Positions 24,504-40,054 of a stretch of 64,000 nt of DNA are shown one piece after another. The first letter of the stretch is position 1. Each line of letters begins with the position of its first letter. The notes under the pieces are model-generated. The model saw only the letters and a list, made by a program, of their open reading frames with translations, made no database searches and had not been told where the DNA came from. This stretch comes from Trichodelitschia bisporula (lineage: Eukaryota). The DNA lies in NCBI GenBank assembly GCA_010356995.1, contig ML996704.1:496001-560000 (forward strand). The letters run 5' to 3'. The position numbers and the translations under genes are program-made.

Positions 24504-26263
24504 ATGTCTGATTCTGACAACGACTTCGTCGCTTCCGACTCCGAAAATGAAGTCCCTCGTTCTTCCACCCGTCGTTCTGGCCCATCAGGGTCCTCCTCCA
24601 CGCGTCCAGGCAAGCGTGATGCACGTGGGTCAAGACGACGGGAGAGGTGGGAAGCCGACATAAAGGATCGAGCCCAGCAAACCGCCGAGGAGATGGTGAA
24701 TGTGGATGCCCGGAGATTCGCTCGAGACATGGCGCTCTCGATAGAGGGGAGGAAGAGAGAGAGGTAAGTCCTTTCGTAACTTGAATGCTTCCGCGGTTTG
24801 GAGTCTTCTGGCTTGGAAATAATGTACCGTGGCAATCCGTGGACATGTCTTCTATGGCAGCAATGGTTCGGTTTGCGTGTTGTTTGCATTCAACTGCGGT
24901 ACGAAGGTTGCCGCCGGCAACTTCCACGTTGCTGCGAGTTACGGGCCGTATATGGCGGTTCTATTCATTGAATGTGGTTACTTTGCATCTCCCCTTCAAT
25001 ATACACACAACTATATACTTACCATTTTTCCAAACCAGACTCTCAGGAAATACGCAACCCGTCCAGCGAGGCATCATGCGCAGCGTCGTCTTCGTCCTCG
25101 ACGTCTCCGATGTTATGCTCGAAAAGGACTTCAAGCCAACACGCTACGTCGTGCTTATCCGCGCCGCCACGAAATTCGTCACCGACTTCTTCGACGAGAA
25201 TCCGCTTGCTCAGCTTGCTCTGGTGGCCATGTACGACGGCCGGGCGCTGACGCTGAGCAGCCTCTCCTCAAATCCCCAGGACCATTTCGCCGCCCTGACC
25301 GAGCTCCGCCAATCCCGCGAACCGAAGGGCTCGCCTTCCCTTCAAAACGCCCTCGAAATGGCTCGGGCAATGCTCCACCACATCCCCACACACGCCACCC
25401 GCGAAGTCATTATCACCCTCGGCGCGCTCTACACCCTAGACCCAGGCGACATCCACGAAACAATCCGGCACTGCGCCAAAGACAAGCTCCGCGTTACTAT
25501 CATCGGTCTAGACGCACAAATCAAGATCTGCAGCGACATCGTCAAGGCCACAAACTCCGGCGACGAAAGCACCTACACCGTCGCCCTCGATCAAGACCAC
25601 TTCGCCGAGCTCACACGCGCAGCCATCGCCCCACCCATCATCCGCCGCTCCGACCAATCCTCCACCACCGTTCCCGCCACTCTCATCCCCATGGGCTTCC
25701 CCTCGCGCTTCGTCGACCCGACCGCCAGCCTGTGCGCCTGCCATTCCAAGCCTACGCGCGACGGCTACCGCTGTCCGAGATGCGAGTCCAAGGTGTGCGC
25801 ACTTCCCGTCGTGTGTCCCGCCTGCAACCTCAGTCTCGTCCAGAGCACGCATCTCGCGCGCTCGTACCACCATCTCAACCCCCTACCAGCATACAAGGAG
25901 GTGAGCTGGGTGCGGGCGCGCGAGGTGGGGAGCCGAGCGTGCGAGGCGTGTTTCACACCCTTCCCCCCTGTTCCGTCGGAGGAAGAGATGGCTGGAGAGG
26001 CGATGACTGGGAATGAGGAGCGTTTTGCGAGTCAGAGCAGCCGGTATGAGTGCCCTAGGTGTGAGACGCATTATTGCGTGGACTGTGATGTGTTTTCTCA
26101 TAATGAGTTGCATTTTTGTCCGATTTGTGCGGCGACGGGGAGGGGGAATGGGAATGAGGTTGAGAATGGGGTTGGAAATGGGGCTGGGATGGGAGTTGGG
26201 ACTGATGGGAATGGGGTCGTGGGCGAGCCGATGGATACCACACGAGCGTCTCGTAGAATTTAG
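24504..26263 (+). CDS. SSL1: TFIIH p44 subunit SSL1; intron 24764-25038
   Basis: PVQRGIMR-vWA domain (EKDFKPTR, F.ENPLAQL, GSPSLQNALE, DPGDIHETI), MGFP, a C4 zinc finger and a C-terminal C1-like finger. Confidence 0.95.
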
Positions 26264-26920
26264 ACAGCGGCGTCTGTAATCCGTAATGGTCATGGTCACG
26301 TTGGTCCTGGGCCGTTCTTGAATGGAGGACGTTATGGTGGTCCTCTGAAAGTATGATGATATTCAGACGTCTACTGAGGAGGTATCGCCGAATAGCTGCA
26401 GCCCTTTGACGGATGGTCTCTATAGCAAAGTCGCATTGCTGTTACATTGGCATTGATGCAATGTCAAGGCTGACCGGAATAGCTCTGCGTCCCCACACGT
26501 CCCACATTCCGCCTTCCGTATCGCCCGCCATCATCAGCGTCCCAGTAGAGGACTTAGCAGTCCCGTTGCAAGGTATTTTATCGGCTTGGATGCCGCACTA
26601 GGGCCATACCGTGATGTGGACTTAAAGCAGGAGCAATGATATGCCAGGGAGGAGTATTCTTATCCAATGGAGGAACATGATGTAATGTGATCATGATAGA
26701 AGGAAGGAGCATATGAGGCTAATCGGAACTATATATTTGGTCTCAAGAGTCTCTTCCTTTCTTCCTCTCTTTACCTTTACTTCAATCTTCAGGTTGCACA
26801 GTTATCTTTGCACGTGTTAGAGCCTATGCTCCCATTATACTGGGCCGCGATGCGTGTCCCGAAGTATGCGGCTATATCACATCGTCCTCATAGCCACCAC
26901 AGAAGAGAGTTCTTTGCCGC

Positions 26921-27607
26921 TTGACTGTGTTTCAACTCGGATATCTGATAGGAACATCCGCGGTCGAGAATAGCGTAATTTACTGTACGGTTGGGGGGGA
27001 GGGCAGTGTACAGAGTAAGAATGATGAAGGAAGTGGATATGAATGGTCAGTGTTAGCTGTTGGGCCTGGAAACCCTCCATCAAGAACACCGCAGCTGGAG
27101 CCTGATGGCACGCAACGCACGACAAGCGCACTTTTCACGCAGGACTTTCGCCTTTACGCTTCGCTACGCACTCACCGCACCTCCATGACGACACCACTTT
27201 TGAAAGAGCTTATGGTATTCATTGCCTCACGTGTGGATAAGCTGTTCGATGTACCCTGCTGGAAGAGTCTCCCAGGGCCACGACTATCCGATTTTGAGCT
27301 CGAGGTGGAGGAAGACTATACAACGCTGTGCGATTTCTTGACTGAGCTCGAAAAACGGCAAGAGGCCGGCAATCAGAGGCTAGATGCTCCGATCATCATT
27401 AAGCTCAGCGAATGCACCAAGCTCTCCAAGGAACTCTATACCTATGTTATGGGTCTGAACAAACACCGTTGGTGTACGTCCCACGAGTGGGAAAGGTTGA
27501 ACGATATGTCTCGTGAGATTGCCCTTTCTCTTTGGAGGTTAAGACAAAGAATAGCTAGAAACTTGGTAAGCGGCTGTCACGAACCGTGGATTACTCGTAG
27601 TGGCTAA
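26921..27607 (+). CDS. Hypothetical protein, orphan-like; structure uncertain
   Basis: 228-codon open frame with a helical-looking C-terminal half and a GTAAGC donor near 27566. No recognisable domain. Confidence 0.3.
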   Translation: MTVFQLGYLIGTSAVENSVIYCTVGGEGSVQSKNDEGSGYEWSVLAVGPGNPPSRTPQLEPDGTQRTTSALFTQDFRLYASLRTHRTSMTTPLLKELMVFIASRVDKLFDVPCWKSLPGPRLSDFELEVEEDYTTLCDFLTELEKRQEAGNQRLDAPIIIKLSECTKLSKELYTYVMGLNKHRWCTSHEWERLNDMSREIALSLWRLRQRIARNLVSGCHEPWITRSG

Positions 27608-27890
27608 AGCAGGTTTAGAGGTCTTACTTGCTAAACAGAAGAGAGAATTTGGATTCTGAAAGTCGTGAGATGATGAGAGATTGGACAGGAGAATAAGTGA
27701 TGGCTACAAAGGGCTGAGGGGGTTGTGATATCACACTTAGGTCGTTGAGGGCCTTACGGAAGGAAGGGGCGAATAGGCTGATTGTCTCGCGGGAATGTTT
27801 AGGCCTCATTCTATTTGAGGTACTAAAGTTGAACCACAACTTGAAGCCAATGCATTCTGGTACGGTGCCCGAGCAGCTGTTTTACTCAAG

Positions 27891-30856
27891 TTAATTCCCA
27901 AACTCGACCTCGTCAAGGCTGTTGATAATGGACAGCTCCTGGCGGTCCGCCTCCGTCAGCGGAGCATTCCCCGGCCTGTCGACAACAAGCGCCTGCATGC
28001 CGGCCTCGAGCGCAGCGCGGATTTCTAGGCAGCGTTAGGGATCCCAAACGACACAGACACAACTTGATCTCTCACCGTTGACATTATCACTGAGGAACAG
28101 CACCTCAGCAGACTTAACCCCAAGCTCGCCCGCAATCCTCATATAGCTCTCCTTCACCATCTTCGGCCCCGCATTGACCGTATCATAGTTCGCCGCAAAC
28201 AGCGGATTCAAATCCCCGGCCCCCTCCACATACCCGAAGAACAATTTCTGCGCCTCGACGCTGCCGGAGCTAAAAATAATGAGCCGCTTGGAGGCCGCCT
28301 TCCATATCTGAAGCTTGGGGACGACGTCGTCGAAGAGCGGCGTGCGGACGGCGCCGGTTTCGTACCCTGTGCGCCAGAGGTAGCCCTGGAGAGCCTTGAG
28401 GGCGGGGTCTTTGACGTCCGAGGCGGAGAGGATCGTGATGTAGTCTACTAGCGTGGAAGGCGAGCTTCTCACCGACGGTGGGAACTTGGTCAAGTACGGT
28501 AAGAGGGCGGGGTGGTCCCATTGCGCGGTGAGGATTTGTGGGGCGTGGGTTAGGGCGTAGGGATACTGGGGTTCGTTAGTATGATTAATTCCAGGGGAGA
28601 CTGAAAGAGGAAGGTGAAGAGAGAGATGCTATGCGATGATTGAACTTGCGATGAAGAGGGAAGGCGATCGTGCGATATCCTGAGTGAAATGATCTGGAAC
28701 GATGTGCAAATAGATAGGGGATGTTCTCGAGGGAATCGAGGGAATTGTCTCGCGAAGCATCAAGCGAAGCAACGATGGACACGATCACGATAGCCAAAAG
28801 CAATCGCAACCCCGCAATCATCCCCTCTCCAGAATCAACTTAGCAATGGCAGAATTCTACCGTACGGTAAAAGCAAACAGCGCCAATTCCTGGGGTAGAA
28901 GATGAACAGTTTCACGTCCATGTCGGGCTAAGCCAACACTAGGAGGCATCTCACGACGGGTGAGGGGATCTCCCTGGACGCCGTCTGGGACTCCAATAAC
29001 TCACGCGACACAGGAACAAGACAAGCAGCACACCCCACCAAGCCACTATCACAACAGCAGCGGGGTCTCATGACAGCCCCAGGAAATTGTGAACTCCCGA
29101 GAGCTGGAAACGTCGGTTCTCGAAAGGTTCACAGCTGGGCTGGTGAACAGGGTGGTTGCGTGGATTCGGGATCAATCACACTGCACAGCGGCGCGCGAAA
29201 CACGGCAGTTGGCTAGAGCGTCCATTCGGATGGAATCGCGCCAGTGAGGACAACGCCTCACTTCCCCGGTGGCGAGGATCACTGCACACGTGGAGGTTGT
29301 GCTACCGTCCCGTTTGCGCTGCGGAGTGATGCGTGACCTGAGCCTGGGAAATTCGGGATACCGTAGGAAAGCATTTAGGTGGAAAGGCCGAGAATACGAA
29401 ATCGACCACGCTAACTTACCAGCACCTCTTTAACAAATGATATGGGACATATCGTTCCTTCTGCGGATCACCAGAGCAGTCAGCGCAGCTCAGGAAAAGA
29501 AAAGGTTACATCTCAGCAACGTCAACTCATCATCAACAACAGCGACCGTGATTGATGTCATCGGTCGATGACTGATGCTTCCAAAAGAAGCCCAGCAATA
29601 AACCTTAATCACCCCCACATGGCCCACCGCAAGGCAAACCACCAACCGGGCAATTTCGCATGACAAGCCCAAAGGCGCACCAGGCGTCAGGAACAAAGTC
29701 CGGATACGTAAACGAGGGCGCCTGTGACACACGCCTCTGCCCGCCACACACGCGGCTGCGCGCGAGATCTGGCGCTTGAAGGCTGAAGCACGGCCGAGAC
29801 AGACAATCTTGGGAGTGCGAGAGGCGCGCTTGGGGTTCTGAGAATCTGGCCTTCGGGACGCGCGATCGGCGCTTTCTCCGTTGAACGGACCAGCAGAAGC
29901 CCCGAGCACATCCCGACAGCCGCCGGTCGAACACCGGAGCGTGAAAATGTGACCCGTGACGGCGACGTCTTGGAGACCCTGCCAAAGCCCGAAAGCCGAC
30001 AACCGCGTCCCGCCATCATTCCTCGTCTCGTCCTCGCCCTTCGGAGGAGCGCCTCCGGTTGCGTGGCCAGAGGCTAGACCCCACATTCCGCCGCGCTCCG
30101 CAGAAGCTCGTCGACGGTAGCGGCGGAATCGCAGAACTTGCCCGTTGCTGCGCCCGCGGCTGCCGTGAGAAAAGGGGATCACCCACGCGCGCGCACCACG
30201 CGCACCAACGCCGGGCGGCGCGCGAGACATGGCCGCGCAGCCTCGGCATCCGGGGCCAGCCTATCCCGGATCTAGGAGCGTGGCGCGTGAGCCCGGCTAC
30301 TTCGGAGTATCAGCCACGTATTGCGTCCCAAGGACAGCCTGACGTGCTGGGCGCAGAATGTACTGCGTAGAAGTGCTAAGTACGGACGGATGTACATGCC
30401 CGACGGAAGGTGACGAGTGCCGTGGGAATGTTTTGATGGTGACTGCCCTAACGACGGCGAGACGTGCGTGCTTGCTGCACGCTTTCTTGGGGGAGTCGCG
30501 GACTACCGGCCCTGGTAGACGCGCGCCGTCGCGGTGTGACTTCCACGGCAGAATGGCCAGCAGCAATTGCTCCGAGAGTCCGCACGCGGTGCAGTCTTGC
30601 GTGCGATCACGCCGTAGGAGAGCAGAGTGAAGTGGGGGAACGCCAATGGGGTCATGAAGCAGAAATATGGGGCGGAAAGAACATGCAAATGCGGGACCAG
30701 TTTCTTGCTTCTGTGCCGTGCTTGATGAGGAGACGCGCGGGGAAGCAACGAAGGGGGCCAACAAACAACGCGACATCAAGGAAGATTGTCGTGCACGCGG
30801 GACACAAACTAACCAATGTCTAACAAGACGGTTGAGACGCCGTGCAATGTCGGCAT
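27891..30856 (-). CDS. UTR4: Enolase-phosphatase E1 (HAD family, methionine salvage); exons 30856-30814, 29460-29420, 28565-28076, 28024-27891
   Basis: The spliced product is MPTLHGVSTVLLDI|EGTICPISFVKEVL|YPYAL...DVKDPALKALQGYLW..GY...IFSSGSVEAQKLFF...FLSDNVN|EIRAALEAGM...RPGNAPL. All junctions are GT-AG with matching phases (1, 0, 1). Confidence 0.92.
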
Positions 30857-33800
30857 GATGCTCGGATACCTGGCTTAAGGTATGTCTAAGATGGCCGAAT
30901 GAGCCGAAGCCTGTCCGCTGGGTAACGGCAGATGAGGAAAATCGCCGACGGGAACGAGTATCGAGGTTGGCTATCGAGGCTGTTTGGGAAAACTCTTCCG
31001 CAGAGCTGAATCGAATAAAGGCAAGCGGCGGTGAAGTTTTGCGACGTTGAACTTCGCGTTGACAGGTCGGAAGTCGTTGGCGATCGATGGAGAAAAAAAA
31101 GCCGATTGCATAATTTGTACGGAGCCCCTCCCGACACCACATCCTCACCACCCGAGCTAACACCACGGCCCGCAAGGCTGCTGGCGAATCCACACCGACA
31201 ACGTGGACACACCAGCTCATTTGCGGAAACGGAAAGTCGATTTTGGGTTGGTGAAGTCGCGAAGGAGCATTTTTATTCGTCCATCTTCGGGACCTCACCG
31301 CTCCCGACCCGTTGCTGGTCTGGACTCCTGATGGCAATTTCAACGTCCTGTTAGCATTAAGCTCCACTATCAAGGGCATGTCAACAATGAAGCTGAGCCA
31401 TAGCGATGAAGCCATCCAAAGCAATCAAGCTTTGAAGATTCTGCAATGTATATGCTGATACCTCCTGCGTTCGCGAAGATCCATAGGCGCGCGAAACATG
31501 ATATCCTCGATTGCGATACCGAGATGCATACTGAACTCGCCACCGAAAGCGTTGAGCTAATAATCTTTCAGATATTGGAACTGGTAGGCACACCGACAGC
31601 AAACTCGGCCCATGAACTCCTCCAGGATCATGTTCGTAGACTATCGGCGAGGCGCCGCTGTCAAAGATCGTCCAAAATGCCCGACAATGCGTGTAAGGAC
31701 AATTCTCCGAATCTCTGGGTCTAGTGGAAGCATGCAAAGTGGCTCGTGAGCATGCTCGCTGCTTCACCCGAAACCGGGATTGCCTCCGAAACGCGACTGT
31801 GCTGGCTAGTCTGCTTCAGATGTCGTCTTGGTTGAGGTTCACGGACCATGAGACGAGAATCTCCAAAAAGATCAAGCAAGCGAAAAACGGCGAGAATCCG
31901 TGGCAGTCCTCGCTCCGCAGGCTCCGAGCGCATCGGGTGGCTCCGCATCCCGCAGAGTCGTAACCCTCATCAGCGAGGTGCAGGAGGATGCAGAGAACTA
32001 ATGAAGATACTGTCAATTAGTTTCCAACTATGGCAGTTCAACACCCTCGCGGTCGTCGTCAGCGAATCCGCGACCCCAACGTGTACACCACCTTACATGA
32101 AAGACGGACCAGAAATTTACGCCTTGGCTTGAGTTGAGGGCGGCTCTGATTCGTCCATGGGCGCATCTCACCGCCTCTATCAGTCCAATATAGGCAACTA
32201 CTGAAGACTAATAACCTTAATGAGCACACCATTGACATCTGGGTTCGCGACGCTATCGTTATCACCGCGGGGCAAGCTTACTCTATGGGAATTCATCGTG
32301 GAGTCACGCCAATGCAACCTAACTCACACCGTGAGCGGCGGTCCGAAGTACAAAGGCCAATCTCACGGTCGACCTGTGGCGATGAGAGCAAAGTGGAGGA
32401 GCAGGTGTGTCAATGGACATGTGCGTATACCCGCGAGACGTACCGATGTACCAAGCACTCGAGGGTTATCACAGGTCGACTGCCCCGCCTTCATCTATTA
32501 GAGGAGACCCCGCCATCATCCCCGCCGAAGACCTCTGCCGCGTACGACGTTGAGAGAGACAGGCCACCTAAAGGGCCGGTCGAGCCCGGGATGCGGTTGC
32601 CTCTGTCATGCGGAGATACTCGCCACCATGGCCGTCCAATGGCCCGAATAGATCGTCCTCGTCTGCAAAGGGAACGCACATCTCTTCGCACTGGTCGACT
32701 TTTCGAATCTAAAGCGGCAAGGCCCAACAAAAGTAGTCGCGCGCCGAACCAAAGGCAACTGTGATGCGTGGGAAGCAGGGAATTCATCGAGATCGGTGAG
32801 GAGCAACAAGCCTCATGACCTCGCCGAGCCCGAGGGAAGCCAAAGACTCGTCGACATGAAAGCAGAAAATCCCAATTGAAGGGAGCTTCACGCTGCAAAG
32901 AGGCTGGCCACCAGTCGCGCTCCGTACAACCTGCAGTAGTCGCATGTCGCGGATGAAAAAGGGTGGCGAGTGCAGCGATTCAACGGTGCAGGGCATGGCC
33001 TGGTGGGTGGGCTGGGGATGAAGATGAGAGGACGGGTGCGATGCGATCAAGAGGCAGGGAGGAAAAAGCAAAGTGTTCCTCTTGGAAGAGCATCCTAACT
33101 TTGTCCTACTGACTTTTTCGACGCTGCGCTCTCGCTCTCTCCTAACCCCGCACATGCGGCCCTTCAGGCCAGCGCTTCAATCCCCAGACGATCCGGCGGA
33201 GACGCGCCGTGTGCGACGGCGAGCGGCGCATTAAATTATCTCACTGACCACGCCGCGCATCTCCAACCTCAGACGAAGCCTGGCGGCCCGCGCGGGCAGC
33301 CGCTGGGAGCCTGGATGCGCAGAAGCGCAGGGTCTGGGATGGTGGTTGGGCTGTGTTGTCGGTGGACAGACTTGGGATCCCGATAGCGCTCTTGTGGAAT
33401 GCCGTGCGAGGGCTGCAGCATCATTTCATCTATCTCGATTTTCAAGCGCTGCGAGCAACGGTGTTTATCCAGACCCGTAGAGGTTTCACGCCCAGCTACT
33501 GCGTCGCCTCCGAGCCAAACGGGCGCGGATGGGAAGGATTCACAGCCTTTTGACTTGTCCGCTCAGCACGCAATGCTCGAGGTTAGGTGGTGAGGTTGCG
33601 CAAGCAGTTTGGATGGTTATGGATGTCGAGTCTGCGGCATGTGGGGGGACGGAGGATGGTACGGTCCTACCTTGAGACGTTAGGGGGAGACGGCAAACTA
33701 TTCTTTGGGGTTTGGTGCTATCGTTCGGTTTCAAAAAATCTTCCTCTTTCCCGACTACTGAACTAGAAGTTTGTAGACGCGGTACAGTATGTACAAGCGC

Positions 33801-36800
33801 CGGAGAAGGCTACGGAGGGGAAGGTGAGAAGGCGGATATGCGCTCCTTTTCGCTGCATCATCAAGGGTCCCGCCAGAAGGATTGGCGGCAGGCGGACCGG
33901 ACGCCGCAAACACGGAAAATAGGTACGGCTGTCAGTGCCTCGCGGGTCACGGCAGCAAGCTGCATCGGCGTGCGCACGCATTTTCCCCACAAAGCGGGTG
34001 TACGCGCTTCGGTTCTCCGCAATTCGCAAAAGGGCGAAGAAGCAAAAAAGGCCGCTATCCTCATTTCTACCAGCATTTGACAAGGCCCCCCAAGCCACAC
34101 TGGGCTTAGAGGAAGCTGCGGAAGCAGGCCTTTCGATATCGCCGGCAGCTACAAGCGTCGCTGCTTGTCGCGAGTGGGCGAAGCGAGCCCCTGGCTAGGC
34201 CTGATCCTGGTCAGCTTGCTGTCCGGCTGGCAGGCACCCAGGCTCGCAGGTTTACAGGCTTTCGCAGTGGATGGAGGGAGCAAGCCCAGCGGCTGTACGC
34301 TATGGGAAAGTCTTGTCGTGACATCCCGAGGCAAAGCAAGTCGGCTGCCAGCGCTCGGCGATATGCAACAAAGACAAAGCAGTAGGAGGAAGGGCTGAAG
34401 CGCCACATCAGCAACCCTTGGATCCGGGATGGAGTAACGTGGACGGCGGACGAGGGAGTGTGAGGGGGAGGAAATGTTGGAGTGAAGCTGGAGTTGGTGA
34501 TAGGTGAAGACACGCAGCGCCGATGACCGCGTTGGGAGTATTCAGGCCAATGGCACACTGGACGACGACCAGGTTGCTGTCGAGACGGGCGCTCTTTTGC
34601 TGTCACAACACCCATCCCACCCTCGACGATTACGCCCGCTACGTACCCCGACGACTTGGTATGATCTCTTCACTCGCGCCAACCTTCCCTTGCGTCGGTC
34701 CGTCGCATCACTCCAAGCAAACCCAGGCGATGATTTGATCCTCGAGGTTCCAGAGTGACGGCGAAGCCGCGAGAAGGAGGGGGATGCTTGGCGGCAATTC
34801 GCAGGGCGCGTGCGGGGAAAACGGGACTCGGCATGGTCGTCTTTCGTCTCGTTGCCGGACAGAGAAAGAGAGTGAGTGAAGAATGCGGATAGGGAATTAG
34901 GATTCTCGCAGACTCTTTGTGAGACGGTGTCCTTTCCGGAACGACGTTTGCCTAGGCGACGCCCTAGGCGATAAGCACAAGATGGGGAAAGGATGGAAGT
35001 CGAGAGAAGCAGACAGATGAACCAGTGACGTTTCCGGCAATCTGAGAAACGTCACAGAGGGCAAATCAGCTCTAATTATTCTAGGCGCCGATCCGCGTTA
35101 TTATTGTTATTCAGCGAGACCCTGTGGTCGAAAGGTCGTCTTCCGGGGCCACGGGATGCTCATGGCGGGCGGCTTCGTCGATCGCGTCTTCTTTCTGGTT
35201 CGGCTCTGCGCTCATCTTTCATTAAATTTTGAGGCAGAGGGCGGCGGGCCGGGCGGGTTTCAGAAGCACGCGCGGGGATGTTTGTTAGGATGGAAAGGCC
35301 TTGCTTCGCTGGCATATGGTTTCATCATCCATCGCGATAACGTCAGGGCCTGGGATAATACGTGATAACGGTTGAACGGAGAGGGAAAGCTGTTGTACCG
35401 AGTACGCTGAGTACCCCGTGTACACAGTTACCTTCCGCGACAACAATTGTTTGCTAATAGCGCGTTGCTTTGCCACTGCATTCCGGTACCTGGGGCAACT
35501 GCCAGGTACAACAACGAACAACGCCCCCTTGGCTCGCAGCTTCGCTGGTCACGTCGCGTGGGTGGCGTGTATCGTGACTGTTCTCCACATCTCCACATCT
35601 CCGCAGCGAGTGATGGGCATGTGCGTGTGCGACGGGGCAACGGCAGAACTCCGAGAGAGAGAGGGGCGAGAGAAGGGAAGGGCCAGACCTGGGGAAAGGG
35701 CTGTCGTGGATGACGAGAGGTGAGGCTCGTTCTCCATTGTTGCCGACAAGTCACCGGTTCATTAGCCTTGAGAGTTGTGGCCACGGGTCAACAGATGGAA
35801 CCGCTCTTTGACTCCCTCTTTTCGCGCCTTGTGAAGTTGATATCCACTTACAACTACTGGCAAGAAGTGTGAATCGACTCATTCTTTGGGTTCCCTTGGC
35901 TTCTGCGCAAGCCATGCCGTAATGGACTGTTCTTCGCTGTACTGTGTACTGTTCATACCAGAGTCCAATCATGACCCCCCGTCATCCCTTCCCCATGCAT
36001 AGCGTACTTCATCACCAGCCCATGGCGGACAAGAAAGATGGCTGAGCCTGCGCCTCGATAGGTCCAAACTTAGCGGAGGAAGAAGGAGGGTGGAGGGCGT
36101 TAGCTGAGGGTCAAGGGAATAACTCGGTGACTCCTTATGAATCCTCACCGCCCTGCAAGCGTGCGCAGAAAACTGGCCCAAAGGAAAGGCGCCAAGGGCA
36201 ACTGACCAAGCAGGGATGTTGTTCAGAGAGGGAAAAGGGCGCTTTCTCTCTTCCTTTACCCACGCCGCTGAGCCTTCTGCCCTTCCCCCCCCACTCCACT
36301 CCCCAGTATTCCCAAGGCGCTCTTTCTTCATATGCACTGGTCCTTGCCGCTCTCTCCCGCCTTCCCAGCTCGAAACCCTCTTACCTTTCGTCCTCACCCA
36401 AATTCATCTGATGACCTGATCGCCTCCCCCGCCCTCATCCCTCATCCCTCTTCTCTCTTTCCTCTACTCTTCTCTCTCTCCACCTCTAACGCCTCTCCCT
36501 AAATCGGTCCTCCACTGTTGCATTGTTTGTTGTGTTGCCTCGTCCGCAATCAGTTGCTGTACTCATCCTCTTCAATCCACTCCCTCCTTTATGACGACTC
36601 AATAACGCTCGCACCCGCCCTCTCGTTCCCCTCCCAGCAGCTGTTTCCCTGCATAGGCTTTGCGTGCCAACCACCCCCCTGCCTCGACGAGCATCACAAC
36701 AACAATAACAAGCAACGACCCGCAATCCTCTTTCATTACCCCCCCCCTCAATTCCCCCCACCTCACCTACCATCTGCACCGTTCGACCAGTTGGCTACAT

Positions 36801-37858
36801 CCTTCCACACTCCGCATCTATTCGCCTCCGACCTCACCACCTTTTTCCGTCTCATCGCCAGCAGCCGTTCATCCGCCTGACTCAACTCACCTCTCTTGAC
36901 ATTGATGTACAAGCAAGCCTTCTAGCCCTCCTTGCATCGTCGTCAATGTTTTGAGCGTCCTTGTACGGCTTACCTCTTGTCCGACCTCTCCTCCCTCATC
37001 ATCGGCGCCTATTTTCTCGATTCGCTAGCTCTCAAAGCCGGTCCTTTGATGCCTCTTACGACCAAGGCCATTGCCTCTGCCTCTGCCCGGAGCTAACGAT
37101 TTCGCCTATCTTTCCCCACCCCTCTCGAACCCCACTCCCCCACCTCGAGTCATCGCCTTGCTGTCACAAATCTCTGAGAGAATAGGTGCCTAGTCTCGCC
37201 ATCAGCAGCTCGGTCGATATCTTCTTACGCAACCCTCCTTCCTCCTTTTCTTGTCCAACTCCAGAGACCGCGACGCAATCGTTGTCCACGCTTTACGACT
37301 CTCCTTGTACCTTTTTACGCAGCGTCTCCGCAACTCTCAGGCCGTCGTCCACTTCACGACTCGTTCCGTTTCCCTTTTCTCAACACCCGCCGCTCGACCA
37401 TTTGGCCCAGCGGAATCTCGTGTCGAGATATCTACGACCTAATACCAGCAAATGAGCACAAATACACTTTCTCTAATAATTTCTTGTTGCTAGCCTTTTC
37501 AGCGGCTCGTCCTCACGGTCGACTTTCACCCGAGCCTCTTGTGAATACCTTTTTGATACCAACGATACTCTCTTGAGCGACACCGGAGTTTTGGCTTTCT
37601 TTGTTCTGCGGTTGTTGTCGGACCTGGAGTTTCCTCGACCTTCGTACATTTGACGAACCAATCCCTCGAGCTCTGCACGATCACCCTCTGTTTTACTACA
37701 ACTTTTCTTCGAGCCTCGCAACACAAAAAGTACGATAGACTGGTTGCTGTTTCATCCTCTGCTTCGCGGTTCCAACCGGTTCCGTTGTTTGCGTCCCGAG
37801 TGCCACGTCAGTCCCACCTCGACGGCACCCCGGCCACTTGCTCGTCGGTCCAGTTTCC

Positions 37859-40054
37859 ATGGAGTGTATGCGGAATCATTTTATTGACGGCGCTCTACTC
37901 GATGGGAGATTTCGTACACTCTCCCCACTCAACCATGGATCCTTTGGCATGGTCTTCAAGGCCTTGGACACTGCCACCGGTGAGCTTGTAGCGCTCAAGT
38001 GCTTGACCAAGCCGTCGGCTGCAAACACCTGTCCACAGATGATTGCTGTCGACGACCGGTCCGAGGAACTGGCCATCCACAAGCTCGTCGGCGCTCATCC
38101 CAATATCGTCAATCTCGTACACCACTTCGAGACCGAGCACCACGTTTACATTGTGCTCGAGTACTGCTCGAATGGCGACCTTTACGAAGCCATTCGCATC
38201 GGCCGCGGCCCTGGCCAGACGGAGAATGTTCGCGAAGCCATGTTCCAGCTGGTCGACGCTGTCCAGTACATGCACTCGAAGGGTGTGTACCACCGCGATA
38301 TCAAGCCCGAAAATATCTTCCTTGACAAGAACGGGACCCTGAAGATTGGTGATTTTGGCCTGGCGACTATGGACCGCTGGTCGTACGAGGCCGCTGTCGG
38401 CAGTGATCGCTACATGGCTCCCGAGCAGTACGATCCTGCCAACTGCGGCTACTCGCCAGCCAAGGCGGACATCTGGGCCATCGGCATCTGCATGCTCAAC
38501 ATTCTCTTCTCTCGTAATCCTTTTGCGACTCCGACTGTGTCGGATCCTCTGTTTTCGGATTTTGCCCACGACAACCAGAGCCTCTTCGATGTGTTCCCGA
38601 ACATGTCGCAGGATACCTTTGAGGTAATTGTCAGCTGCCTCGCGCTCGATCCTGCCAAAAGGTCTCTCTCGGCCGTTCGGAGTGCCCTTCAGCGCGCCGT
38701 TGCCTTCACCACGGACGAGGAGCCTCTCGATGACTTTTGCGTCGAGGATCCTACCGTCGTCGAAACCACGAGCACTCGCGAGCCTCTCCGCACACCTTCT
38801 ATCTCCACTCCGCATCTTGATCAGAACGGTGCCTTTCCTTGGGCCAAGGCACTCGCGCTTACGCCTCCCGTGCGGCAACTTTCGGCCATCCCCGACACTG
38901 AGAACTCGGATGACTTTGAGCTGTTTCCCTCCGATCCGCAATCGGACTGGTACTCGGTTTCGGGTTCCATTCCCTCTTTCGTGGATTCGGGTCTCGGTTT
39001 CTCGCTCAAGTCTGACAAGCTCTCGGGTTATGTTGCGATGAAGTCGACTCGCCCCAAGGCTGTACCAAAGACCTCGGGCTCGCTGCCTATCTCCATGGCA
39101 CGTCCCATTCCCAGCATGGCAAGCGTCTTTGGGAAGAAGCGTGAGGCCGTTTCCAAGAGCTGGAGCGATTTGTGGGATGAGGACGCTGAGGAGGAGCAAG
39201 TACTTTTCGGTCGTATCCCTGAGCCAATTGAGGAGCAGGAGCCGATCGATGAAGAGGAGCTGGACCACGATTTGGTCTTCCTGCGCAGTGGTGAAGACGA
39301 CAAGGTGTGGGAGGCGGACCTTCCTGAGGACCCCATCACACCTCGCCCTGCCCTCAAGGAGCTGAAGAACCTGGACTCCGTCAATAACTCGCGCAGCCAC
39401 AGTCCGAAGGCTTCGTCCAAGCGTGCTCGGGAGACACCAAGAGATAAGGAACATGTCAGCGAATTCACAGGCTTCGTCTTTGAAGAGCATAACGAAGATG
39501 GCACCTCTTCGTCGGCTTTGTCCAATGTGCCTCGTTACTCGCCACCATCGAAGCGCTCGATGGTTGACAAGTGGGCGGCTCTTGGAGATCGCAGGCGTGC
39601 GGTACCTAACGGGCAGAGCATCACGAGCTCGGGTTCTCGCGTAGGTGCCAAGCGGGGTCGCGCTGGTAGCTGGAAGAAAAATGCGAAGGAAGTGTCGTCT
39701 CCGTCGGCTCGGACGACTCCGTCCTTCCAGCATGCTTCGCCTTTCGCATCTGATGGGCCACATGGCGGCTCCCACGATTTTGGCGTTTGGGAACAGCTTC
39801 AGAACACTTCGCCTTCCGTCACTTTGCACCAGGATGGAACCCCCGGTGGTCTTGGCCGTCGTGGGCTGTGGAACATCAAGGATTGGCGCCGGCAGCTGGG
39901 CACCAACACGAACAGTCCCTCGGTCTCTCCTATTCCAGCCATGAGGACGGGCGCGACCGTGGCGCAGCACTCGCGCAATCAGTGGAACCCGTTCCACACC
40001 GGCGGGGACGCGAGCGAGAATGAGTGGGTGTGGAGGCACGACCTTCACTTGTAG
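37859..40054 (+). CDS. KSP1: Ser/Thr protein kinase, KSP1/Ran1 family; intronless CDS
   Basis: LNHGSFGMV, VALKCL, HPNIV, YHRDIKPEN, DFGLAT and GSDRYMAPEQ, with the SKSWSDLWDE tail motif typical of fungal Ksp1. Confidence 0.88.
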   Translation: MECMRNHFIDGALLDGRFRTLSPLNHGSFGMVFKALDTATGELVALKCLTKPSAANTCPQMIAVDDRSEELAIHKLVGAHPNIVNLVHHFETEHHVYIVLEYCSNGDLYEAIRIGRGPGQTENVREAMFQLVDAVQYMHSKGVYHRDIKPENIFLDKNGTLKIGDFGLATMDRWSYEAAVGSDRYMAPEQYDPANCGYSPAKADIWAIGICMLNILFSRNPFATPTVSDPLFSDFAHDNQSLFDVFPNMSQDTFEVIVSCLALDPAKRSLSAVRSALQRAVAFTTDEEPLDDFCVEDPTVVETTSTREPLRTPSISTPHLDQNGAFPWAKALALTPPVRQLSAIPDTENSDDFELFPSDPQSDWYSVSGSIPSFVDSGLGFSLKSDKLSGYVAMKSTRPKAVPKTSGSLPISMARPIPSMASVFGKKREAVSKSWSDLWDEDAEEEQVLFGRIPEPIEEQEPIDEEELDHDLVFLRSGEDDKVWEADLPEDPITPRPALKELKNLDSVNNSRSHSPKASSKRARETPRDKEHVSEFTGFVFEEHNEDGTSSSALSNVPRYSPPSKRSMVDKWAALGDRRRAVPNGQSITSSGSRVGAKRGRAGSWKKNAKEVSSPSARTTPSFQHASPFASDGPHGGSHDFGVWEQLQNTSPSVTLHQDGTPGGLGRRGLWNIKDWRRQLGTNTNSPSVSPIPAMRTGATVAQHSRNQWNPFHTGGDASENEWVWRHDLHL

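Follow-up and report, generated by a model that had tools for sequence, protein, structure and literature searches.

The UTR4 locus

The window analysed here, a stretch of 64,000 nt from the genome of Trichodelitschia bisporula, carries UTR4 on its minus strand. When four minus-strand exons are joined they give a CDS of 708 nt encoding an acireductone synthase (UTR4) of 235 amino acids, in which the LLDIEGT motif is intact in the spliced translation. The features of the locus, with the evidence for each, are listed below in the direction of UTR4, followed by two further introns identified from RNA.

30814..30856, minus strand: UTR4 exon 1, 43 nt, ATG at 30856 (sequence, spliced translation, RNA joint 29460>30814)
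29461..30813, minus strand: UTR4 intron 1, 1353 nt, phase 1, GTTAGT ... GCTGAC ... CAG (RNA contigs)
29420..29460, minus strand: UTR4 exon 2, a 41-nt microexon (sequence, spliced translation, RNA joints on both sides)
28566..29419, minus strand: UTR4 intron 2, 854 nt, phase 0, GTAAGT ... ACTAAC ... CAG (RNA contigs)
28076..28565, minus strand: UTR4 exon 3, 490 nt (spliced translation, public protein)
28025..28075, minus strand: UTR4 intron 3, 51 nt, an ordinary length, used as the internal control (RNA joint)
27891..28024, minus strand: UTR4 exon 4, ending with the stop codon TAA (sequence, spliced translation)
27555..27627, minus strand: intron in the UTR4 3' extension, 73 nt, GTAAGA..TAG, 263 nt beyond the stop codon (RNA joint)
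31117-31176, plus strand: intron of a transcript that overlaps the UTR4 5' end, 60 nt (RNA contig)

The first 28 codons of UTR4 are divided by two introns into exons of 43 nt and 41 nt. Exon 1 codes for MPTLHGVSTVLLDI and the first base of a Glu codon, while exon 2 codes for (E)GTICPISFVKEVL and completes the HAD motif DIEGT. HAD motif I, with its nucleophile Asp, is formed only by the joining of these two exons. In comparison with S. cerevisiae Utr4, the gene for which is not known to have introns, the T. bisporula motif exists only once two long introns have been removed. An earlier reading made from the sequence alone had placed the exons and introns at the 5' end of UTR4 and had noted the split LLDI|EGT; its coordinates are exact throughout, both in the sequence and in the spliced translation.

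The same reading had taken the product to be enolase-phosphatase E1, and this is borne out. The curated equivalog model TIGR01691 scores 188.4 bits over residues 8-230, passing its cut-off of 128.1, and the yeast UTR4 structure 2g80 is matched over residues 7-220 at E 2.4e-45, with LLDIEGT aligned to LLDIEGT. S. cerevisiae Utr4 (2g80) and human ENOPH1, the 'E-1 enzyme' (1yns), are members of the same family over their full length and share the nucleophile motif LLDIEGT(I/V)CPISFVKE. The spliced product is a letter-for-letter match to a public Trichodelitschia bisporula protein (P0001), which means that the gene model has already been annotated. At this locus the UTR4 gene of the species, for acireductone synthase (enolase-phosphatase E1), is annotated correctly.

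Splicing of introns 1 and 2

The RNA evidence consists of contigs from two runs, X1 and X2, of one sample in one study; these contigs skip introns and therefore behave as RNA. They give no strand or transcript ends. Among their joints, 29460>30814 skips the 1353 nt of intron 1, 28565>29420 skips the 854 nt of intron 2, and 28024>28076 skips the 51 nt of intron 3. All three joints read CT..AC on the plus strand and so GT..AG on the minus, and a separate RNA contig of 42 nt for exon 2 carries the joints on both sides.

Taken as rough per-contig means, the depths of the junction contigs are 534-543 in X1 and 99-222 in X2, against 8.25 and 25.3 (X1) and 0-16 (X2) for contigs of unspliced intron, so that intron depth is about 2-9% of junction depth. 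Splicing of UTR4 looks efficient in this one sample. Introns 1 and 2 are real U2-type spliceosomal introns, removed from most transcripts.

That these two introns are far longer than others is upheld for the surrounding 4-kb stretch, where they are approximately 12-27 times the length of the three other RNA-confirmed introns, of 51, 60, and 73 nt. Retention of either leads in silico to an immediate stop, as had been claimed, with intron 1 giving ...LLDIG* and intron 2 giving ...KEVLVS*.

As regards the 3' extension of the gene, the 73-nt intron at 27555..27627 is minor in run X2, where the joint has a depth of 2.6 compared with 143 for the gene.

Intron length in related fungi

The relatives available for comparison are fungal contigs from soil metagenomes, with protein identities of 40-58%, and intron 3 is the sole control for length. 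The introns at the 5' end of UTR4 in these contigs are as follows.

L004: intron 1 328 nt, exon 2 41 nt, intron 2 560 nt
L005: intron 1 305 nt, intron 2 440 nt
L006: intron 1 305 nt, intron 2 438 nt
L003: intron 2 559 nt
L014: intron 1 352 nt, intron 2 absent
L009: intron 1 74 nt, intron 2 248 nt
L001: no exon 2 in the 459 nt preceding exon 3

The 43-nt exon 1 is also present in L004, L005, L006, and L009, and L003-L006 and L009 have the 41-nt exon 2 at the corresponding position. Among the relatives intron 1 ranges from 305 to 352 nt, with one of 74 nt, and intron 2 from 248 to 560 nt, while intron 3, where it can be read, is about 55-80 nt. In five of the six informative metagenome contigs at least one of introns 1 and 2 is 305-560 nt long, L009 being the exception. 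The T. bisporula introns are two to four times the lengths seen in the relatives and are the most extreme among the loci compared.

The sequence-only reading had proposed that the introns are kept for a function, and had named introns of about 50 nt in orthologues as evidence to the contrary. Such short introns are not seen at these positions in the closer relatives, but they do occur further out, with 74 nt in L009 and 60 nt in Beauveria, where the gene model reads through intron 1. The view that the length is no accident of one genome has some support, in the five of six contigs with long introns, but the mechanisms proposed along with it do not, as described below. The split and its two small exons are old and common to related Pezizomycotina. 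Great length characterises both of these intron positions in the closer relatives and is further expanded in T. bisporula. Conserved length without conserved sequence can also come from inheritance and slow shrinkage.

Of 56 public NCBI gene models for orthologues, 14 have a defective N-terminus exactly at the two small exons, which shows how widespread the split is and how difficult it is for annotation.

Content of the introns

There is no AT-rich decay, as had been stated: GC is 0.613 in intron 1 and 0.535 in intron 2, compared with 0.548 for the window, and RIP indices are normal. Intron 1 has a core of 600 nt at 29750-30350 with a GC of 0.67, between flanks of approximately 0.5-0.55. The further statement that no transposon ORF is present likewise holds, with none of 20 ORFs from the introns and the upstream region reaching a Pfam gathering cut-off; at E<=1 there are two sub-threshold matches, at E 0.24 and 0.39. 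A frame of 256 aa inside intron 1 has no homologue.

An open frame of 375 codons at 30300-31424 on the minus strand was considered as a gene and rejected. It has 0 matches among 1.84 billion representatives, is interrupted by the plus-strand intron, and lies outside the UTR4 frame. Of 500 dinucleotide shuffles only 3 reach its length, and of 500 block shuffles 8 do so. It is treated as a by-product of a purine-poor sense strand.

No terminal inverted repeats or target duplications were found at the introns, the best inverted pair being 14 nt at 86%, and neither intron has a second copy within the window. Tandem and dispersed repeats at the locus are limited to trivial ones of 18-37 nt. Over 33 windows the folding z-score averages -0.16, with values for whole introns from -2.9 to +2.1, and 'zipper' pairing of the 5' splice site to the branch point is absent in all nine introns tested (z -0.98 to +1.53).

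An Rfam scan of both introns, which had been suggested as a check, returned nothing better than E 0.99, for a miRNA model, when 27500-31500 was searched at permissive thresholds. In six related loci the best match was at E 0.57, and nothing fell below E 0.5 there or in the window locus. The only snoRNA matches are to archaeal-type C/D models in Rfam at E 5.4-7.9, far below their gathering scores; the best of these, at E 5.4, falls outside the introns, and the sole intronic one is sR2, at E 7.9. No tRNA was found, and the introns have no conserved box-bearing block in common with those of the relatives. A fungal snoRNA that Rfam does not include may still be present.

Orthologous introns of three to four lineages have 0 common 7-11-mers, and no similarity between lineages was found by blastn (none at E <0.26) or nhmmer (best E 0.4). 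Blocks conserved within the L001/L003/L004 clade were sought in the window and in seven other loci, where nothing was found, and there was no convincing consensus fold. The intron sequences evolve fast. Neither a riboswitch nor a known ncRNA, a remnant of coding sequence, or a repeat within the window was detected in them.

One short candidate, GTGAT, precedes the acceptor of intron 1 by 6-9 nt in three lineages. It is not significant, being matched in 42 of 2000 shuffles with eight flank tests, and is missing in L009 and L014.

Origin of the intron length

The length may have a neutral origin, the T. bisporula introns having grown through insertion of mobile or foreign DNA, such as a MITE, an introner-like element, or a decayed transposon, that has no function, with the length seen in relatives as inherited slack. 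This would account for introns longer than those of any relative, for the GC-rich core of intron 1, and for the lack of sequence conserved with the relatives. However, the introns lack terminal inverted repeats and target duplications, have no further copy in the window, and show neither homology in their ORFs, nor a RIP signature, nor excess folding stability, and both intron positions are older than the species. We consider insertion of this kind rather unlikely, although the extra length in T. bisporula may simply be tolerated expansion.

Introner-like elements are reported to have excess folding stability. In the available portion of the report on such elements in Dothideomycetes (PMC4457414), they resemble the UTR4 introns in being unusually long introns in a Dothideomycete. 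The UTR4 introns differ in being single-copy in the window and without excess folding stability. Both UTR4 intron positions are present in the distant relatives L004, L005, L006, and L009 and are therefore not recent gains, which would be expected for introner-like elements.

Possible overlapping or intron-hosted transcripts

It has also to be considered that the introns host or overlap a separate transcription unit. This could be an ncRNA made from an intron or an antisense RNA; alternatively, the introns might supply promoter or other regulatory DNA for a spliced plus-strand transcript that overlaps the 5' end of UTR4. UTR4 exon 1 is covered by an RNA contig that runs from 30814 past 31500 and has the canonical plus-strand intron 31117-31176 (GTACGG..GCTAAC..AAG). 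In X2 the contigs of unspliced intron are deeper toward the 3' part, at 16.1 compared with 4 in intron 2 and 9.4 compared with 0 in intron 1. The 13-mer TGTYTCGCGCGCC occurs three times in the window, always on the minus strand, at 29190, 30217, and 31486, against an expected count of 0.28 and with 0 of 100 shuffles reaching three, for a pattern chosen after the repeats were seen. The 150-nt window 30401-30550 folds at a z of -2.66.

The 13-mer is not, however, present in the introns of the relatives, and similarity around its copies ends after about 19 nt, while a single window of 33 with z below -2.5 is near chance. The depth of the introns is just the small fraction of junction depth given above, and the Rfam, C/D-box, and tRNA searches offer no candidate. 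A separate unit is, on balance, improbable. The CGCGCGAAA-type motif was considered as E2F/SBF-like and this was rejected, the motif not being conserved in the relatives.

Putative embedded RNA elements

Introns with a TPP riboswitch are known in NMT1/THI4-type genes of Neurospora and Aspergillus. UTR4 is like these in having a 5' intron, in a metabolic gene, of which mis-splicing leads to a premature stop, but its introns are without an aptamer match, a conserved core, or a structural signal. A riboswitch-like intronic RNA that responds to SAM, MTA, or sulfur and controls UTR4 splicing, in the manner of TPP riboswitches in fungal thiamine genes, would suit a metabolic gene with long 5' introns, immediate stops upon retention, and long introns at the same positions in relatives, but it is highly improbable given the Rfam, k-mer, similarity, and folding results above and the fact that the immediate stops are not conserved, retention in the relatives giving stops after 31-113 codons.

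Neither of the two roles that had been put forward for the introns, metabolite-responsive splicing and the hosting of an unannotated ncRNA, finds support: the former is without an Rfam match, common k-mer, similarity, or fold signal, and the latter without an Rfam match, tRNA, excess folding stability, or cross-lineage similarity. A conserved aptamer of the TPP-riboswitch type would have been detected by these searches, although a lineage-specific element may be present. Introns 1 and 2 are in all probability ordinary, real introns that hold no conserved embedded RNA element.

Exon 2 as a possible splice-choice point

The best explanation overall, which we hold to be probable, is that these are ordinary, efficiently spliced U2-type introns, the length of which is a trait of the locus and has been expanded here, together with a putative splice-choice step. 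The 41-nt exon 2, placed between two long introns, would be the point at which the choice is made. This exon is not a multiple of three in length and its skipping therefore shifts the frame. When it is skipped in silico a stop is reached after 112 codons, at a point 194 nt ahead of the junction between exons 3 and 4, and in all four of the relatives tested the stop comes after 62-116 codons. A transcript without exon 2 would be a non-productive mRNA of the NMD type, and on this proposal the fraction of UTR4 mRNA that is productive could be tuned by splicing. None of the five joints in the RNA contigs links exon 1 to exon 3, in a single sample and with contigs that drop rare forms. A control step through skipping of exon 2 is possible, but at present we consider it unlikely.

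Regulated exon skipping is rare in filamentous fungi. Regulated unproductive splicing is known elsewhere, as AS-NMD cassette exons, and in animals the SAM synthetase genes have SAM-responsive splicing. UTR4 resembles these cases in that a productive mRNA depends on the inclusion of a frameshifting exon, and in that the gene belongs to methionine/SAM metabolism, but here the likeness is predicted, from in-silico skipping.

In the available portions of two reports, an exon whose loss destroys the ORF is skipped or differentially included in the same gene in other classes of Pezizomycotina. The enolase-phosphatase E1 gene of S. sclerotiorum (Sscle_03g030320) shows exon skipping at all infection stages, leaving an ORF of <30 aa (PMC9597501), and M. 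oryzae UTR4 (MGG_10183) is among five genes with changed exon inclusion after pyraclostrobin (PMC11091397). In those portions the skipped exon is not specified and intron length is not commented upon. In S. sclerotiorum the locus measures 1892 nt and the transcript 765 nt (PMC7749757), so that approximately 1.1 kb is intronic. The Sclerotinia ORF of <30 aa differs from the 62-116 codons that follow skipping of the 41-nt exon, so that the event, as far as it is described in that portion, may be a different one. In contrast to what is listed for Sclerotinia and Magnaporthe, the T. bisporula contigs show no skipping.

It is conceivable, though we think it doubtful, that the catalytic 41-nt exon is a conserved splice-choice device that sets the amount of productive methionine-salvage mRNA in Dothideomycete-like and probably also Leotiomycete fungi, the long introns being kept to make the choice tunable.

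Implications

The UTR4 locus of T. bisporula has a correct gene model, annotated before this analysis, in which two introns are outliers and no riboswitch is present. In the literature found, the long introns and the microexon of UTR4 have no earlier description, the gene appearing only in two listings of alternative splicing, in the available parts of those reports (PMC9597501, PMC11091397). Since 14 of the 56 public orthologue models miss or garble the 43-nt and 41-nt exons, which carry the catalytic Asp, gene callers for fungi could usefully be tested on this locus. Indeed, orthologue proteins with a garbled N-terminus would wrongly appear to be catalytically dead.

The recurrence of long introns at both positions in several lineages, with no sequence conservation, together with exon skipping in two other fungi, leads to a testable hypothesis, that methionine salvage in filamentous fungi is controlled at the level of splicing. 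If the splice-choice reading of exon 2 is true, it would unite the unexplained UTR4 exon-skipping events that are listed in the Sclerotinia and Magnaporthe transcriptomes.

The UTR4 gene and its splicing

Read on the minus strand, the UTR4 region is a gene of four exons.

Exons and introns of UTR4 in T. bisporula
30856-30814, minus strand, exon 1, from the ATG (43 nt)
30813-29461, minus strand, intron 1 (1353 nt, GTTAGT ... GCTGAC ... CAG)
29460-29420, minus strand, exon 2 (41 nt)
29419-28566, minus strand, intron 2 (854 nt, GTAAGT ... ACTAAC ... CAG)
28565-28076, minus strand, exon 3
28075-28025, minus strand, intron 3 (51 nt)
28024-27891, minus strand, exon 4

Spliced computationally, the exons give a 708 nt reading frame for a 235 aa protein, which reads LLDIEGTICPISFVKEVL and then YPYAL over both junctions. 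These coordinates and the spliced model agree with the sequence-only reading, which had placed two giant introns around a 41 nt exon. A protein search with exon 3 recovers a 235 aa NCBI protein of T. bisporula at 100% identity; at full length this public protein is the spliced model. The window is accordingly DNA of T. bisporula, a Dothideomycete that lives on dung, and a gene model including the two giant introns had been public before. The match to TIGR01691 scores 188.4 bits (cut-off 128.1) and the nearest solved structure is yeast UTR4 (2g80, E 2.4e-45), with an alignment that begins at the LLDIEGT motif. By these similarities the protein is identified as acireductone synthase (enolase-phosphatase E1).

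Evidence from RNA comes from the contigs of two runs, X1 and X2 (one sample, one study), the RNA label of both being a guess. Placed on 27500-31500, they contain five joints, of which three are exactly the UTR4 introns (1353, 854, and 51 nt skipped; all CT..AC on the plus strand) and two are a 73 nt minus-strand intron and a 60 nt plus-strand intron. As rough per-contig means, the depth of the junction contigs is 534.5 and 543.1 in X1 and 99.1 and 222.2 in X2, while that of the unspliced contigs is 8.25 in X1 and 9.4 dropping to 0 in X2 for intron 1, and 25.3 in X1 and 16.1 dropping to 4 in X2 for intron 2. This indicates that both introns are spliced out of the great majority of UTR4 transcripts. 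Introns 1 and 2 have ordinary signals and are efficiently spliced, and are extraordinary in length, being 12-27 times longer than the three RNA-confirmed ordinary introns of the stretch (51, 60, and 73 nt). A joint of exon 1 to exon 3 is not among the five, in this one sample and in contigs, which lose rare forms. The immediate stops that had been described upon retention of intron 1 or intron 2 are real; they are not conserved in relatives and so look incidental.

The split in relatives

The query for a scan of JGI metagenome contigs was exon 3 aligned with its nearest homologues; 80 of 319 confirmed loci were retained, the majority being unsplit bacterial genes. Among the 80, the UTR4 split is common to six contigs of soil fungi.

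Lengths (nt) around exon 2 in fungal contigs
L003: exon 1 beyond contig, exon 2 41, intron 2 559
L004: intron 1 328, exon 2 41, intron 2 560
L005: intron 1 305, exon 2 41, intron 2 440
L006 (near-identical to L005): intron 1 305, exon 2 41, intron 2 438
L009 (44% identity): intron 1 74, exon 2 41, intron 2 248
L014 (40% identity): intron 1 352, exon 2 –, intron 2 none

Counted from the ATG, exon 1 measures 43 nt in L004, L005, L006, and L009; exon 2 was not found in the 459 nt upstream of exon 3 in L001 or the 776 nt in L008. The occurrence of the same split in fungal relatives shows that the split and its microexon are old and the layout inherited. In the closer relatives, each of the introns flanking exon 2 has several times the length of intron 3 beside them, which is about 55-80 nt where readable (manual count). 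The suggestion that the length is more than an accident is partly supported by this. The trait is not universal: intron 1 is short in L009, and one Beauveria gene model reads through an intron 1 of 60 nt.

Content and conservation of the long introns

It had been proposed that the introns are kept for metabolite-responsive splicing or as hosts of an unannotated ncRNA. A riboswitch or ncRNA is unsupported. No Rfam match rises above chance: a permissive scan gave five chance-level matches over 27500-31500 (best E 0.99) and one in six related loci (E 0.57). The introns contain no tRNA in the search made for them, and of 20 stop-to-stop ORFs inside or adjoining them, none reaches the Pfam gathering cut-off (two sub-threshold matches, E 0.24 and 0.39). 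The 256-codon open frame of intron 1 has no homologue. A stop-free frame of 375 codons (30300-31424, minus strand) takes in sequence upstream of the gene, exon 1 in a frame other than that of UTR4, and 500 nt at the start of intron 1; neither 1.84 billion representative proteins nor Pfam gave a match, its length is equalled in 3/500 dinucleotide and 8/500 block shuffles, and it is rejected as a gene and attributed to the purine-poor sense strand.

Against the whole 64 kb window, blastn finds self-matches only for both introns, and tandem and inverted repeats are trivial. GC is 0.613 in intron 1 and 0.535 in intron 2 (window 0.548). RIP indices lie in the normal range; on the sense strand T exceeds A, as is usual for introns. 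Sense-strand folding has a mean z of -0.16 over 33 overlapping 150 nt windows. The sole locally stable fold (30401-30550, minus strand; -53.8 kcal/mol, z -2.66, 0/200 shuffles as stable) is the one window below z -2.5 and, as 1 of 33 tested, is near chance expectation. Zipper pairing between the 5' splice site and branch-point regions exceeds shuffles in none of nine introns of T. bisporula and relatives. Introns 1 and 2 thus lack a detectable embedded element.

Comparison of orthologous introns upheld the recurrence of long introns in closer relatives, not the presence of conserved blocks across lineages. With blastn-short, similarity among all introns is confined to the pairs L005/L006 and L003/L004, and no 7-11-mer is common to three or four lineages. 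This speaks against an aptamer of the riboswitch type and against an RNA gene long hosted by the introns; room is left for lineage-specific elements. Within L001/L003/L004, a clade of soil fungi, intron 2 is about 60-65% identical (exons about 88%) and has two better-kept blocks with cores of about 35 and 65 nt (L003:270-355, 404-497; L004:833-911, 957-1052; L001:42-125, 173-265), profiles of which match nothing in the window or seven other loci, and for which no convincing consensus fold was found.

In three lineages (window, 29466-29470; L003/L004; L005/L006), GTGAT precedes the intron 1 acceptor by 6-9 nt, within a final 12 nt that are not pyrimidine-rich. It is discounted: a 5-mer is shared in 42/2000 shuffles, GTGAT is absent from L009 and L014, and the result is not significant after multiple tests.

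Neighbouring features

One RNA contig contains UTR4 exon 1 and continues about 1.2 kb upstream (30814-31500 and beyond). It carries the canonical 60 nt plus-strand intron (31117-31176, GTACGG..GCTAAC..AAG), so a spliced plus-strand transcript, in whose region no convincing ORF was found, adjoins or overlaps the 5' end of UTR4. The canonical 73 nt minus-strand intron (27555-27627) is 263 nt 3' of the UTR4 stop codon, in the transcript's 3' extension; its joint has a depth of 2.6 in X2, where the gene has 143, so that it is a minor isoform in that run. It overlaps a convergent 237 aa ORF without Pfam match. The 13-mer TGTYTCGCGCGCC has three copies in 64 kb (expected 0.28; three reached in 0/100 shuffles, for a pattern picked post hoc), around which similarity stops after about 19 nt; it is absent from the relatives' introns. 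The roughly 6.8 kb upstream of UTR4 (31000-37700) has no Pfam-recognisable ORF until a protein kinase gene, and the upstream regions in L006 (2.2 kb) and L009 (4 kb) are likewise without obvious coding ORFs.

Features around UTR4
24785-26260, plus strand, SSL1 (TFIIH subunit)
26894-27607, plus strand, 237 aa ORF
29190-29202, minus strand, TGTYTCGCGCGCC in intron 2
30217-30229, minus strand, TGTYTCGCGCGCC in intron 1
31486-31498, minus strand, TGTYTCGCGCGCC 630 nt upstream of the ATG
37739-40051, plus strand, protein kinase gene

Exon 2 as a possible point of splice choice

No published description of the split or microexon layout of UTR4 was found in the literature searched. In 14 of 56 NCBI orthologue models the N-terminus is wrong or missing exactly at exons 1-2 (P0002, P0006, P0008, P0020, P0021, P0038, P0041, P0062, P0075, P0082, P0088, P0089, P0093, P0100; P0018, a false pattern flag, was left out), and on paper these lack the catalytic DIEGT motif. 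The models of Venturia inaequalis and Verticillium albo-atrum have lost exon 2, with exon 1 joined near exon 3.

In silico, skipping of exon 2 shifts the frame, and translation ends after 112 codons, at a point 194 nt ahead of the last junction; in relatives the stop comes after 62-116 codons (4/4). The available text of PMC9597501 lists the enolase-phosphatase E1 of S. sclerotiorum (Sscle_03g030320) among 21 genes with an alternative-isoform ORF under 30 aa, the event being exon skipping at all infection stages, and that of PMC11091397 gives M. oryzae UTR4 (MGG_10183) as one of five genes with exon inclusion changed after pyraclostrobin; neither text specifies the exon. In a supplement table of PMC7749757, the Sclerotinia locus (Chr_3:2735501-2737392) is 1892 nt and the transcript 765 nt, which leaves about 1.1 kb as intron.

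With a frameshifting 41 nt exon held between long introns, the splice choice at that exon may set the productive fraction of UTR4 mRNA. The combination of such an exon, long flanking introns, and UTR4 skipping listed in two other fungi makes a splice-choice point of this kind possible, although we infer this step tentatively and consider it rather unlikely. In T. bisporula the additional kilobase may be a tolerated expansion. The gene model is already known; what the comparison with relatives adds is a small new observation.
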